From Patescibacteria group bacterium (GTDB taxonomy: Bacteria > Patescibacteriota > Patescibacteriia > PEXW01), in contig JBAZBR010000002.1 in NCBI GenBank assembly GCA_041671325.1, forward strand, positions 73,978 through 137,977: a DNA stretch of 64,000 nucleotides, read 5' to 3'. Below the pieces are notes generated by a model. It worked only from the letters and a program-made list of their open reading frames with translations. It was not told the DNA's origin and did not search any database. Every line of letters starts with the position of its first letter. Position 1 is the first letter of the stretch. Shown one piece after another: positions 9,206 through 58,521 of the stretch. Position numbers and translations under genes: made by a program.

Positions 9206-9841
9206 ATGCTCCCTCTTAATTATTTTATGTCTGGTCAGCCGCTTGAAGCCTTGGCGTCATTGCTGGCTATTATCATTGCCATTACCATCCATGAATTCAG
9301 CCATGCTTTTTCTTCCTTGCTCCAAGGCGATAGCACAGCAGAAATTGAAGGCCGAGTGACTTTAAATCCCGTCTCCCATGTGGACATTTGGGGTTTGTTG
9401 GCTTTAATTTTTCTGGGTTTTGGCTGGGGCAAGCCAGTGCCTTTTAATCCTTATAATTTGAAGTTTAAAAAATGGGGTCCGGCCTTAGTCTCTCTGGCTG
9501 GGCCATTTTCTAATTTACTGGGGGTAATTATATTTGGGCTTGCGCTTAGGCTGGTTTTGCAATTTGCGCATTTGCCGACCGATAACCTTTTAATCACCTT
9601 TTTATTCTTGTTGGTAATTTTCAATATTATCTTAATGCTTTTCAATTTATTGCCCATCCCGCCCCTTGACGGTTCCAAACTTTTGAATTTATTGCCCAAG
9701 CAATTTGATGGTTTAGTCCAGTTTTTCAACAAGTACGGTTTTGTAATCCTGATTGCCATAATTCTGTTCGGCCAGAAATATTTGGGCGCAATTTTTGGCT
9801 ATATTGAAAGGGGAATTTTGTCTTTAATCATCCCGGCATAA
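9206..9841 (+). CDS. Site-2 protease family zinc metallopeptidase (M50), short form
   Basis: HEFSHAF (HExxH) in TM, NLLPIPPLDGSKLL motif. Confidence 0.8.
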   Translation: MLPLNYFMSGQPLEALASLLAIIIAITIHEFSHAFSSLLQGDSTAEIEGRVTLNPVSHVDIWGLLALIFLGFGWGKPVPFNPYNLKFKKWGPALVSLAGPFSNLLGVIIFGLALRLVLQFAHLPTDNLLITFLFLLVIFNIILMLFNLLPIPPLDGSKLLNLLPKQFDGLVQFFNKYGFVILIAIILFGQKYLGAIFGYIERGILSLIIPA

Positions 9842-9858: not shown

Positions 9859-9977
9859 GTTGACCCCGCACCACTTTCTAAAACAATCCAAATTTTTAAA
9901 TAAATAAAGAGATCAATTCTGGATAAGTATTCAATTAATAATAGGTAAATTTGTATGGAAAGTGGTGCGGGGTTGAC
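9859..9977. repeat. Element with perfect 20-bp terminal inverted repeats (GTTGACCCCGCACCACTTTC ... GAAAGTGGTGCGGGGTTGAC) around an AT-rich 79-nt core; MITE-like or structured RNA
   Basis: Exact reverse-complement arms at 9859-9878 and 9958-9977; a second copy with near-identical arms at 29115-29229. Confidence 0.7.
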
Positions 9978-10001
9978 AGGCGCGGGCTTCCGTGTTATTT
10001 T
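9973..10001 (+). promoter_or_regulatory. Candidate str-operon promoter TTGACA-N17-TATTTT embedded in the right arm of the IR element
   Basis: TTGACA at 9973 with a 17-nt spacer, ~90 nt upstream of rpsL. Confidence 0.35.
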
Positions 10002-10092
10002 TTCAATTACTGAAAACACTTTAATTCCCCATGTCGATTCTTGCGAAAGTGGGGCTAAGAATCTCCACTTCGGCTTTTTATACTTAAAAAAC

Positions 10093-10506
10093 ATGCCAAC
10101 AGTCAACCAATTAGTCAGAAAAGGCAGAAAATCCAATAAAATCAAGTCTAAAACTCCGGCCTTACAGCCAGTTTTGAATGCTATGAAGCGCTTTCGCCAT
10201 GAGTTGCCAGAAGGCAGCCCATTTAAGCGCGGAGTTTGCGTCAAGGTGACTACCACCACCCCTAAAAAACCAAATTCGGCTTTGAGAAAAATTGCCAGAG
10301 TTCGGTTGTCCAATGGCATGGAAGTAACTGCTTATATCCCAGGCATTGGCCATAATTTACAGGAACACTCAATCGTTTTAATACGTGGCGGTCGGGTTAA
10401 GGATTTGCCAGGCGTCAGGTACCACATTGTCAGGGGAGTCTATGATACCCAAGGCGTGGCCAACCGCAAACAAGGCCGCAGTCTATACGGCGCCAAGAAA
10501 CAATAA
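10093..10506 (+). CDS. rpsL: 30S ribosomal protein S12
   Basis: [13 protein letters not shown]... start; the track ORF 9955.. is an upstream extension through the repeat. Confidence 0.95.
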
Positions 10507-10509
10507 TAT

Positions 10510-10974
10510 ATGCACGGAAAGCAAGCTAAAAAAAGAATAATCAAACCGGATACCAAGTATAAAAGCGTGGCGATTGCAAAGTTTATCAATTACGTTATGG
10601 AGCGTGGTAAAAAATCAGTTGCCCAGAAAATCGTTTACAGCGCTTTGGATTTGGTGGCTGAAAAGACCGGCAAAAAGCCTTTGGATGCTTTTGAATTAGC
10701 CATCAGGAATGTTTCTCCAGTGGTGGAAGTCAAGTCCCGCCGGGTGGGCGGTGCCAATTACCAGGTGCCAATTGAGGTTCGGGGCGAAAGGAAAATGGCC
10801 TTGGCTTATCGCTGGCTTTTGGAAGCCGCCCGGAACAAAAAGGGCAAACCCATGCATGAAAAATTAGCGACGGAAATTATCGGTTCAATCAATAACGAAG
10901 GCGATGCGATCAAGAAAAAACAGGATGTCCATCGCATGGCAGAGGCAAATAGGGCTTTTGCACACTTCGCTTAG
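10510..10974 (+). CDS. rpsG: 30S ribosomal protein S7
   Basis: Conserved S7 sequence, position in the str operon. Confidence 0.95.
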
Positions 10975-10997: not shown

Positions 10998-11426
10998 TTG
11001 AGTACGAATGTGCGAAATACGAATAAATCAAAGTCAAAGCTCTGGCGAAAGGATCTTGTTTACCCAGAACTAAGTTATCAGATCGTTGGCATTCTTTTTG
11101 AAGTTTATAATCAACTAGGATCAGGTTTCCCCGAAAAAGTATATCAGCGGGCAGTTGCTCAGAGGTTGCGGCAGATTCGCATATCATTCTCTGAACAAGT
11201 GCCGGCAAATGTACTTGATCAAGGTGAAGTTCTCGGTCGCTATTTCCTTGATTTCCTGATTGAATACAAATTAGTTTTAGAACTAAAACGCAATAGCCGC
11301 GCACCACTAAAAGATATGCAACAAGTTTTAGGTTATTTAAAAGCGACTGGATTGCAACTAGGAATTCTTGCTGATTTTACCAGTCATGGCGTTCAGTATA
11401 GACGTATTTTGAATCTTCATTCGTAA
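10998..11426 (+). CDS. GxxExxY-family protein (PD-(D/E)xK-like), inserted between rpsG and fusA
   Basis: LSYQIVGILFEVYNQLGSGFPEKVYQRAVAQRL...LDFLIEYKLVLELK...QVLGYLKATGLQLGILADF matches the GxxExxY family; the N-terminal ~15 aa are encoded by the TACGAA repeat and the true start may be internal. Confidence 0.7.
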   Translation: MSTNVRNTNKSKSKLWRKDLVYPELSYQIVGILFEVYNQLGSGFPEKVYQRAVAQRLRQIRISFSEQVPANVLDQGEVLGRYFLDFLIEYKLVLELKRNSRAPLKDMQQVLGYLKATGLQLGILADFTSHGVQYRRILNLHS

Positions 11427-13539: not shown

Positions 13540-13652
13540 GAACCTTCGGGTTTGACGAAAAATTAATGTTCTGTTATACTCGCATTTGCACTTCAGTCAA
13601 CTTTTTCAAACTAATTTCAATTATTTTTTCAATTAATTAACCTAATAAGACA

Positions 13653-28609: not shown

Positions 28610-29035
28610 TTATGTGCCGTAGATTCTGTTGAAGTAATATCTGCGGGCATGCTCTTTGTCTTTTTTTTCGTATTCCTTGCGAAGATTGATTCCCCGTTGA
28701 ATTGCGCGTTCGAATTGGCAGCCCATAATGGGCTTCACTTGCTTTGTCGATCCAACGGTTTCACAGCTGTTAAAAGCGGCGATGATCAATGACCATTTTA
28801 GTAGCCACTCTTTTTCATTTTCCAATCCATGGAAGGCGGTTTGGAAGGCGATGGCTCTAAGAAGGCAACGCTTTGTTTTGCCTTTGCAATGGTTTAGGGT
28901 CATCATCTTTTTCACGATTTGGAGAGCCTGGTTGGCATCAAAATTGGCTGCAAGCAGTTCGGTTTCTAGCATGCTAAGAAGCGAATGAGCCTCTTTTGTT
29001 TTTACTTGCTGTTCCGAAGACTCTTTGGTATTCAT
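28610..29035 (-). CDS. Hypothetical protein (141 aa)
   Basis: ATG at 29035 preceded by GGAAAGGA; the track ORF extension to 29137 is encoded by the repeat element. Confidence 0.6.
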   Translation of the reverse strand: MNTKESSEQQVKTKEAHSLLSMLETELLAANFDANQALQIVKKMMTLNHCKGKTKRCLLRAIAFQTAFHGLENEKEWLLKWSLIIAAFNSCETVGSTKQVKPIMGCQFERAIQRGINLRKEYEKKDKEHARRYYFNRIYGT

Positions 29036-29114
29036 GGAATCCTTTCCTGGGTGAGGGTTTTTAAACTTGCGGTTTTTGATTTTAAACTCTATTGTAGATT
29101 TAAGCTTTAAATTA

Positions 29115-29229
29115 GTCAACCCAGCACCACTTTTCACTAAAACGCCCTAAACATAGCCCCTGAGTTATTTTTGGATAACAAGTTACAGTATAAAGAAAGG
29201 CTGTTTATGAAAAGTGGTGCTGGGTCAAC
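29115..29229. repeat. Second copy of the terminal-inverted-repeat element (GTCAACCCAGCACCACTTTTCA ... TGAAAAGTGGTGCTGGGTCAAC)
   Basis: 22-bp perfect inverted arms; arm and loop-edge similarity (CTAAAAC...TGT.T) to the element at 9859-9977. Confidence 0.7.
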
Positions 29230-29241
29230 CCCCTTAATTTT

Positions 29242-29739
29242 ATGGGCAAAAGCATGGTTACTTTCCTGGCAGTCGGCATTCTGTTGATTGCTTTTGCTTG
29301 GGCAATAGGTGGCAATGAAATTACCGATTACACGTCTTATTATTTCAAGTGCCTAATTGGCCAAACTGCCAAGGTTGAGATAAAAAATCAAGTTATTAAA
29401 GCTGAAGTTGTCAAATCGACTAAAGCTAAAGCCAAAGGCTTGAGCCATCGGAGAAATCTGCCAAAAGATAAAGGCATGCTTTTTGTCTTTGACCAGGCGG
29501 ATAAATATGAGTTTTGGATGAAAGACATGAAAATTCCCTTGGATATTATCTGGATCAACGATGGTAAGGTGGTGGATATTTCTAGAGGTGTTTTTCCGCC
29601 AGTTGCAGGTTCAGAGCCGGTAAGAGTCAAACCCACTAAATCAGTTAAAGAGATTTTGGAAGTTTATTCTGGCGTTGGGCAAAATTGGCAAATAGGCGAC
29701 CAGGTAAATATTACATTTGGGAGAATTTTAGGTTTATGA
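29242..29739 (+). CDS. DUF192 domain protein (COG1430)
   Basis: KGLSHRRNLPKDKGMLFVF...YEFWMKDMKIPLDIIWI. Confidence 0.7.
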   Translation: MGKSMVTFLAVGILLIAFAWAIGGNEITDYTSYYFKCLIGQTAKVEIKNQVIKAEVVKSTKAKAKGLSHRRNLPKDKGMLFVFDQADKYEFWMKDMKIPLDIIWINDGKVVDISRGVFPPVAGSEPVRVKPTKSVKEILEVYSGVGQNWQIGDQVNITFGRILGL

Positions 29740-35626: not shown

Positions 35627-35786
35627 GGAAAGTGGTGCGCTTGCAGAACATAAAATACCGCAGAAACGAGGAACGGACTGAGCGAAGTGAAGGAGTACGC
35701 GTTTCTGCGGAAAAGCGGCGCGTTTGTGAAACCCGAAGTAGCCTCGCAAATGCGGGGATACGCAGGGTGTAACAAACGATGACGCG
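35627..35786. repeat. Solo half of the IR element (GGAAAGTGGTGCG) followed by a GC-rich structured element (11-bp perfect stem CCGCAGAAACG/CGTTTCTGCGG) related to 56190-56330
   Basis: Shared blocks GCA(G)AAACGAGGA ... ACGCGTTT..GC..GAAAAGCG with the element after cspA. Confidence 0.5.
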
Positions 35787-35862
35787 TGGTGCGCCCAGGA
35801 GGAATCGAACCTCCAACCTTGGGCTTAAAAGGCCCCTGCTCTGCCAATTGAGCTATAGGCGC
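35787..35862 (-). tRNA. tRNA-Lys (anticodon TTT)
   Basis: Cloverleaf: acceptor GCGCCTA/TGGGCGC, D-arm GCTC..GAGC, anticodon loop CTTTTAA, T-arm GGAGG-TTCGATT-CCTCC, CCA encoded. Confidence 0.8.
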
Positions 35863-58288: not shown

Positions 58289-58521
58289 ATGGTCTTTAAT
58301 GAGTTTTCTAAGTAATCCTGATTTCTTGATTTGTATTTCCCTTTTTAGAGCTTGGATTTTTAAAGCTAATGTTCAGTTTTGATAATACCATAAGGAATGT
58401 ACGCTTTTGTTGATTTAACTTTTCCTTTATTGTGTTCATTAAAGCGCCTTTGGATATTATCAGTAACGCCAATGTACAATCTGTTAAATTTCGGACTTCT
58501 CAAAATGTAAAGATAAAACAT
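58289..58521 (-). pseudogene. GIY-YIG nuclease (UPF0213-like), frameshifted; intact N-terminal 51 codons (58366..58521) then continuation in another frame abutting tRNA-Glu
   Basis: MFYLYILRSPKFNRLYIGVTDNIQRRFNEHNKG...PYGIIKTE then stop; +2 frame continues ALKREIQIKKSGLLRKLIK matching the family C-terminus. Confidence 0.6.

Follow-up and report, generated by a model that had tools for sequence, protein, structure and literature searches.

Probable miniature transposable elements inserted at the -35 boxes of housekeeping promoters in Patescibacteria

Background

Stowaway- and Tourist-type miniature inverted-repeat transposable elements, or MITEs, can have unrelated interiors while sharing a terminal repeat and a duplication type, and are cross-mobilised by one transposase family. 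The Correia elements of Neisseria (CREE or NEMIS) have 26-bp arms, a TA duplication and a homogeneous interior. Correia elements also interact with sigma-70 promoter signals, carry promoter boxes of their own and form mRNA hairpins that can be processed; the review that summarizes these properties lists the bacterial groups in which MITEs occur, and this list omits Patescibacteria (PMC10969869). The transposon piggyBac generates a TTAA duplication (rarely TCAA or TAAA), possesses terminal repeats starting with CCC and has a prokaryotic relative, IS1380 (PMC10813416). Here we analyze two hairpin-forming elements in a 64,000-nucleotide stretch of a contig from a Patescibacteria group bacterium (JBAZBR010000002.1; the whole stretch is hereinafter the window). 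Element 1 is located upstream of rpsL, the gene for ribosomal protein S12, and element 2 between two divergent genes. An initial interpretation, made from the sequence alone, considered a miniature mobile element, a structured small RNA (sRNA) or a protein-binding palindrome. We conclude, with a probability of about 85%, that the two hairpins belong to a single family of non-autonomous DNA transposons (MITEs).

This family apparently has not been described so far and is spread across the Patescibacteria (candidate phyla radiation, CPR), the genomes of which are tiny and gene-dense. Literature searches produced no description of MITEs in Patescibacteria, and a search with the arm sequence returned primers only. 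The family has one unusual property, namely insertion into the -35 hexamer of a promoter, which is then regenerated by the target-site duplication.

Results

Element 1 is located between the gene for a site-2 protease (M50), which ends at 9841, and the ATG of rpsL at 10093. The feature delineated by the sequence-only reading at 9859-9977 is present as quoted, but its inverted repeats are not perfect over 20 bp: the reverse complement of GTTGACCCCGCACCACTTTC is GAAAGTGGTGCGGGGTCAAC, which ends in ...GGGGTCAAC, whereas the right 20-mer is actually GAAAGTGGTGCGGGGTTGAC, ending in ...GGGGTTGAC. The perfect inverted repeat comprises 16 bp (9863-9878 and 9958-9973), and a longer, imperfect pairing of 25 nt (84%) is delineated by a repeat-finding tool. 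The outer hexamers form a direct repeat, GTTGAC...GTTGAC, and the same is the case in element 2 (GTCAAC...GTCAAC), which was the first sign of duplicated target DNA as opposed to a longer arm. Element 1 proper spans 9864-9972 (109 bp) and has the ends CCC...GGG. It consists of a left terminal inverted repeat (CCCCGCACCACTTTC, 9864-9878), an AT-rich non-coding core of 79 nt (9879-9957), the outer part of which prolongs the arms imperfectly and which contains no real open reading frame (ORF), and a right terminal inverted repeat (GAAAGTGGTGCGGGG, 9958-9972) that is the perfect complement of the left one. Flanking it are direct copies of TTGA at 9860-9863 and 9973-9976, the latter of which also makes up the initial four bases of the -35 box of rpsL. 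Among 107 family interiors (see below), this core matches only those of L117 and L118, two assemblies that were obtained independently, from this strain or one nearly identical to it, and in which element 1 is unchanged.

Element 2, first noticed at 29115-29229, is real as well; what distinguishes it from element 1 is a C:G to A:T change, which is compensated, and an additional T. The repeat tool delineates arms of 18 nt that are 100% complementary (29119-29136 and 29208-29225). Element 2 proper is 105 bp long (29120-29224), with CCC...GGG ends and the arms CCCAGCACCACTTTTC (29120-29135) and GAAAAGTGGTGCTGGG (29209-29224), and is flanked by direct copies of TCAA at 29116-29119 and 29225-29228; on the minus strand, the left copy is the TTGA of a -35 box. 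The divergent genes on the two sides are the one at 28610-29035 (minus strand), which encodes a protein with no Pfam match, and a DUF192 gene (29242-29739, plus strand; Pfam DUF192, E 2e-24) that starts 13 nt after the element. Neither element has any coding capacity, the sole ORFs being artefacts in which the reading frame crosses an arm. When up to 3 mismatches are allowed, the window contains 4 occurrences of the arm 16-mer compared to 0.5 expected, and none of 100 shuffled sequences reached 4.

Relatives of the source genome provide orthologous empty sites for both elements. In L119, where the flanking M50 protease is 87% identical, the M50-rpsL spacer is 166 nt long and contains a single GGTTGACA followed by 17 nt, TATTTT and the same leader; it reads ...gcaaaaGGTTGACAattcatcagcctcgtgTTATTTTtgcaattactt... 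and contains neither the arms nor the core. The more distant L121 and L123 also lack an element at rpsL and have TTGACG-17-TACATT or TACGCT instead. At the site of element 2, the nearest available relative, L125 (DUF192 60% identical), reads ...ctATTGTAaattcagttgataatttAGTCAAGaccctgtttttATG, with a single AGTCAAG and the same minus-strand -10 box, TACAAT, and the 105 bp of the element are missing from the spacer. The reverse case is observed as well: in the fusA-tuf spacer of L119, a family copy is inserted precisely at the TTGACG that in the window is free of an element and belongs to the tuf promoter (13552-13580, plus strand; TTGACG, 17-nt spacer, TATACT). In L125, the rplU promoter is occupied by a family copy at TTGACC-17-TATTCT.

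A scan of one genome per species (185,579 species) with the pattern GCACCACTTT, a gap of 64-94 nt and AAAGTGGTGC yielded matches in at least 116 loci, compared to ~17 sites that by our own arithmetic are expected by chance; given that the pattern forces an exact 10-mer, the conservation of the arms is overestimated in this set. Of the 123 matches listed, 92 have at least 3 more nucleotides paired on the outer side, and the pairing in these matches includes the compensated changes CCCA/TGGG, CCCC/GGGG, TCCA/TGGA and CCGA/TCGG. About 76 of the matches listed are hairpins of the window type, mostly in Patescibacteria; the carriers include Kerfeld-, Komeili-, Parcu-, Sacchari-, Doudna-, Kaiser-, Staskawicz-, Zambryski-, Giovannoni-, Niyogi-, Taylor-, Yanofsky- and Nomurabacteria as well as Paceibacterota. 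The two window elements, of ~105-109 bp each, have the ends CC[C/A]GCACCACTTT(T)C ... G(A)AAAGTGGTGC[G/T]GG, with 15-16 bp of perfect repeat. The position-fixed, single-copy hairpin that would have favored a gene-specific regulatory function is thus the opposite of what is observed, namely numerous copies and empty sites in relatives.

The interiors are mostly unrelated, even within one genome, and range in length from 7 to 90 nt, so that some copies consist of little beyond the two arms. Bursts of copies with shared interiors were detected in the Bacteroidetes genome HyVt-532 (11 copies), in Parcubacteria A3 (8) and in a member of the Thermodesulfobacteriota (5), and a single cross-genome pair with related interiors was found, in L125 and L106. 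Within ~82 kb of the source contig, there are five copies, two in the window and three in the 8 kb upstream of it. The latter are a decayed copy flanked by TTAA/TTAA, a copy flanked by TTTA/TTTA and a 41-bp copy that consists of arms only and is flanked by TTTA/TTCA.

The duplication was analyzed in 76 copies of the window type aligned on the arm core. Direct identity was observed at outward positions 6-7 (2 nt) in 32 of the 76 copies, at positions 5-8 (4 nt) in 28 and at positions 4-9 (6 nt) in 6. These counts favor a 4-bp duplication; a 6-bp duplication (GTTGAC) and then a 2-bp one had been considered and were dropped accordingly. The duplicated unit has the form T-NN-A, with the element proper starting with CC[C/T]; the duplications seen are TTGA/TCAA, TTTA/TAAA, TTAA, TTCA and CGCG. 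In an earlier, smaller set (n=50), the flanking dinucleotides were identical in 27 copies, 24 of these being non-palindromic direct pairs, versus 2 inverted pairs. The direct-repeat diagonal score was 0.47 against a background of ~0.27. Direct repeats such as TT, TC and AA are inexplicable by base pairing and so argue against a purely structural (RNA or cruciform) origin of the outer bases.

The choice of target is strongly skewed. Intergenic positions account for 56 of 71 copies (~79%), whereas non-coding DNA makes up ~21% of the same loci; TTGA/TCAA represents 14 of the 24 intact duplications but only 14% of the intergenic T-NN-A sites, a ~4-fold excess. Seventeen ends match TTGACA in at least 5 of 6 positions, and 15 of these contain TTGAC. 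All 17 are followed, at a distance of 16-18 bp, by a hexamer with A in position 2 and T in position 6 (TAnnnT in 14), and 10 of the 17 reach the -10 score threshold of the scan, compared to 9% of the ends without a -35-like hexamer. Most of the -35-like ends are followed by an ORF within 40-270 nt. The genes downstream of the copies include rpsL (S12), tuf (EF-Tu), rplU (L21), greA, typA (TypA/BipA), groES, secG and a gene for a ZIP transporter.

The two window copies conform to this pattern. TTGACA at 9973-9978, 17 nt and TATTTT, with TG upstream, constitute the predicted promoter of rpsL and the str operon (9973-10001, plus strand), the best promoter-like site of the region (10 of 12 matches in the promoter scan), and both the hexamers and the leader are retained in the element-free L119. 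A promoter is thus predicted where the sequence-only reading had placed it, but it is not delivered by the right arm, given that L119 already contains GGTTGACA-17-TATTTT: the hexamer, which is present in the empty sites, is a part of the host promoter that the duplication restores. For the gene at 28610-29035, the predicted promoter (29091-29119, minus strand; 10 of 12 matches) consists of TTGACT, a 17-nt spacer and TACAAT, and the same TTGACT-17-TACAAT occurs once in the element-free L125. Element 1 would put a G+C-rich arm in place of the original sequence upstream of the -35 box of rpsL and would form the 3' end of any read-through transcript of the M50 gene. Element 2 probably resides in the 5' untranslated region (UTR) of DUF192 in addition to the promoter of the divergent gene: because it lies between any upstream promoter and the start codon of DUF192, at a distance of 13 nt from the latter, the mRNA would either start inside the element or carry a 105-nt hairpin as its 5' UTR. 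The spurious protein N-termini that had been noticed in the window are real in both cases, MESGAGLT in the ORF 9955-10506 and MKSGAGLT in the ORF 28610-29137 on the minus strand. The artefact created by the right arm has entered the public gene calls, where rpsL is given as 183 aa from 9955, with 46 excess codons; the real gene (10093-10506, plus strand) starts with the ATG at 10093, and the calls in relatives are 137-138 aa.

Discussion

The two elements are small and non-coding, with terminal inverted repeats, target-site duplications, dispersed copies and insertion polymorphism, as expected of a MITE. Of the three options considered initially, the miniature mobile element is the one supported by the additional copies, the empty sites and the duplication. 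We infer the following chemistry of insertion. A transposase provided in trans would bind both arms and cut the target at T-NN-A with a 4-nt stagger; the CCC/GGG ends would be joined to the target, and repair would duplicate the tetranucleotide, in either a cut-and-paste or a copy-and-paste mode. The favored target, (G)TTGA(C), is the -35 hexamer of sigma-70-type promoters. Duplication of TTGA leaves a complete TTGAC(A) beside the -10 box, so that the promoter would survive; replacement by the G+C-rich arm would be confined to sequence upstream of the -35 box, and the promoters would be expected to still fire after insertion. The bias towards promoters could reflect a preference of the enzyme or the survival of harmless insertions in gene-dense genomes.

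Several observations weigh against the MITE interpretation. The perfect 4-bp duplication is kept in only the 28 of 76 copies, and a few have 2- or 3-bp repeats or none; the tuf copy of L119 is flanked by TTGA on one side and TTTGA on the other. The differences between interiors within one genome are unusual for a bacterial MITE and require the explanation that only the ends are shared, and the arms are nearly identical across very distant lineages, in part because the search pattern was exact. The palindromes in Actinomyces, Arthrobacter and one Bacteroidetes metagenome-assembled genome share only the forced 10-mer core and have different ends, and may be unrelated to the family. In addition, no arm pair enclosing an ORF was detected in ~0.9 Mb of fetched loci (arm pairs 130 bp-3 kb apart and unpaired arms, 116 loci), and a tblastn search with the ISEcp1 (IS1380-family) transposase found nothing in these loci or in the window, although such a search does not cover distant homologues. 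The only transposase gene noted near the window, of the IS1595 family (L151 588-1454, on the same contig and ~9 kb past the end of the window), encodes a 265-aa protein and belongs to a small element with 25-bp inverted repeats (GGGTATTCACCAGCAGTTGGAACAG) that are unrelated to the arms; it was rejected as the mobiliser, and no cognate transposase was detected in the loci fetched.

Other searches for the enzyme were likewise negative in their scope. An all-against-all comparison of 890 ORFs from the fetched loci revealed no multi-copy gene, only shared housekeeping neighbors, among them apparent type IV pilus operons (judged by the sizes and order of the genes), and no transposase is among the 25 families listed from an NCBIfam scan of 82 ORFs in four burst genomes (single hits are not shown there). 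A scan of viral contigs gave one match, which is unrelated and iteron-like. A gene for an 81-aa GIY-YIG nuclease (L149 1854-2099), on the same contig and ~6.2-6.4 kb upstream of where the window starts, is enclosed by two family copies and is next to a pilin-like gene; it was considered as the mobiliser and rejected because its homologues in six other loci and in the window are not adjacent to arms, except for one ~300 nt away in L069. The homologue in the window is a fragment of 50 aa (58372-58521), beside a tRNA-Glu gene. As a lead only, the 4-bp T..A duplication and the CCC ends point to IS1380/piggyBac.

An extended version of the MITE interpretation, which we consider rather unlikely, posits that the arms define a Patescibacteria-wide superfamily in which only the ends are shared, with an enzyme that is possibly chromosomal or domesticated, possibly IS1380/piggyBac-like, and actively recognizes (G)TTGA(C), highly expressed promoters being safe landing sites that are repaired by the duplication. 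Should it hold, the elements would be a general means, acting across the lineage, by which 5' UTRs and the DNA upstream of core promoters are rewired in hosts that are very poor in other mobile elements.

Among the genuinely different explanations, a host regulatory palindrome, that is, a protein-binding site or cruciform upstream of strong promoters that is maintained by selection, fares best but is nevertheless very improbable. Such a palindrome would accommodate the near-identity of the arms between very distant lineages, the interiors of which drift, the strong association with promoters of housekeeping genes and the cases in which copies from different lineages are located upstream of orthologs (such as L078/L088 and L015/L100). 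It is hard to reconcile with close relatives that have the same promoters, with intact hexamers, but lack the element, with half-sites that are mostly 70-90 bp apart but only 7-9 bp apart in other copies, a spread unfit for one binding geometry, or with the target duplications that flank the copies and the decayed copies in the same genome. Apart from the arms presumably being bound by a transposase, nothing independent supports the protein-binding option.

Somewhat less probable still is a structured sRNA or a cis-regulatory RNA hairpin, with a stem of 16-20 bp, that would act on rpsL or on the transcript of the upstream gene. Both elements do fold far better than shuffled sequences (-41.8 and -43.2 kcal/mol, z ~ -6.4), the arm changes are compensated (C:G to A:T), and element 2 is probably transcribed within the DUF192 5' UTR. 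All the same, element 1 is upstream of the rpsL -35 box and hence outside the rpsL mRNA, the direct flanking repeats (TT/TT, TC/TC) cannot result from pairing, the interiors are not conserved, and neither is the position in relatives. Rfam, at its gathering thresholds, identified only three tRNAs in the window; a permissive scan of element 1 retrieved nothing beyond generic miRNA-precursor hairpins (up to 27 bits, against thresholds of at least 100), and none of the family members in 18 loci had a match. An Rfam match to Actinomyces-1 in L054 lies beside a palindrome, not on it, and was set aside as unrelated.

Of similarly low probability is a REPIN-like origin, in which two inverted units of the repetitive extragenic palindrome (REP) type are moved by a single-copy REP-associated tyrosine transposase (RAYT), an IS200/IS605-like Y1 enzyme. 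The size and architecture are indeed alike, with inverted conserved units, a variable spacer of ~70-80 bp, a long hairpin, an intergenic location and mobilisation in trans with no internal transposase. However, REP units are palindromic, whereas the arms described here are not self-complementary and lack the GTAG head of REPs; HUH/Y1 enzymes make no target duplication, in contrast to the 4-bp direct repeats seen here; and no RAYT-like gene flanked by arms was found in the fetched loci, whole genomes not having been searched. An invertible promoter switch or an integron attC-type recombination site is the least credible: although inverted repeats bracket an ~80-bp AT-rich segment beside genes and the outer GTCAAC/GTTGAC is similar, with a single mismatch per side, to the attC core RYYYAAC/GTTRRRY, the whole unit, including the arms, is absent from relatives, 24 of 26 informative cases show the outer bases in direct and not in inverted orientation, the interior is almost lacking in some copies, the copies are single and located at promoters, and neither window copy is accompanied by a cassette array or by an integrase, invertase or recombinase gene.

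The solo arm that the sequence-only reading had placed at 35627 corresponds to a 13-nt match to the right arm (GGAAAGTGGTGCG, 35627-35639) that has no partner and that may or may not belong to the family. The tRNA-Lys 3' end is directly repeated over 9 nt (GCGCACCAC), and the match coincides with one of these copies. Just 3' of tRNA-Lys (35787-35862), a GC-rich segment of 147 nt (35640-35786, minus strand) with two strong hairpins (fold z = -2.8) and no Rfam match is bracketed by GCGCACCAC; it looks like a small insertion with its own replacement tRNA end. The 85% relative L153 has neither the 13-nt match nor the 147-nt segment and contains a different tRNA-Lys 3' flank. L153 itself contains, at ~455-535 (shown on the minus strand) and upstream of its intact tRNA-Lys, another 5' fragment of tRNA-Lys (GCGCCTATAG...) that is followed by GC-rich structured sequence. 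This arrangement suggests that the locus has been rearranged or inserted into in that lineage as well. Separately, the arms of the family resemble a tRNA 3' end plus trailer (CCC[A/C]GCACCA followed by CTTT).

Several features near rpsL were noticed in their own right. The rpsL leader contains a hairpin and a T-run (AAGTGGGGCTAAGAATCTCCACTT CGGCTTTTTA; window 10047-10079, L119 10748-10785), and the whole leader, including CGAAAGTGGGGC, is kept in the 87% relative; the leader may function in attenuation or autoregulation of the str operon. Between rpsG and fusA, an ORF for a PD-(D/E)XK protein (PDDEXK_3, 10998-11426) is shared with the 87% relative and absent from L121 and L123, and looks like a separately mobile gene within the str operon. 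In L123 (68% relative), a different long palindromic insert, rich in TACGAA repeats, is located directly upstream of the rpsL -35 box (10633-10755), indicating that this promoter has also been hit by an unrelated hairpin element.

In L021, L044, L068, L099 and L108, family copies are located downstream of an apparent type IV pilus operon (pilB/pilT/pilC-like, labeled by gene sizes and order alone), where pilin genes are expected, and these copies may reside in pilin promoters. Among the palindromes that share only the 10-mer core with the Patescibacteria elements, those of Actinomyces are multi-copy, ~125 bp long, with the ends TGTCAC-N6-GCACCACTTTC, a conserved GATCATGCGGATC-like center and no obvious duplication (L034, L043, L052, L054, L058, L062, L070, L074, L077, L081, L086 and L107). 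Actinomyces are the hosts of Saccharibacteria, and a link between the two kinds of element through this relationship is speculative.

The presence of the family in the -35 boxes of rpsL, tuf, rplU, groES and greA explains recurrent annotation errors, and its copies are insertion-polymorphism markers that can serve for strain tracking in metagenomes. It also points to the existence of a mobilising transposase and offers a natural test of how much the sequence upstream of the -35 box matters in promoters of Patescibacteria. If the promoter preference is a property of the enzyme and not a survival bias, this would be an unusual transposon that targets and restores a promoter element.

Relation to known mobile elements

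In hybrid promoters created by insertion sequences, the -35 hexamer likewise straddles the junction between element and flank, but those insertion sequences supply a new -35 box, whereas here the hexamer pre-exists and is regenerated by the duplication. The likeness to IS1380/piggyBac consists of the CCC...GGG ends and the TTGA, TCAA, TTAA or TTTA duplication; the arms are otherwise unrelated to the ISEcp1 ends, so that the resemblance amounts to three terminal bases and the duplication type.

With the Correia elements, the family shares a size of ~100-150 bp, lack of coding capacity, inverted repeats, high copy number and a mostly intergenic location near gene starts. It differs in the unrelated arm sequence, the 4-bp T-NN-A duplication, the mostly unrelated interiors and the origin of the -35 box, which here belongs to the target, and it cannot be counted among the Correia elements. 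The Stowaway and Tourist MITEs are eukaryotic, have a TA or TAA duplication and known transposases, whereas the hosts here are bacterial. By analogy, then, the behavior of the family, comprising small, promoter-proximal, hairpin-forming elements, appears closest to that of the Correia elements, whereas its population structure, with only the ends and the duplication type shared, appears closest to that of the Stowaway-type superfamilies.

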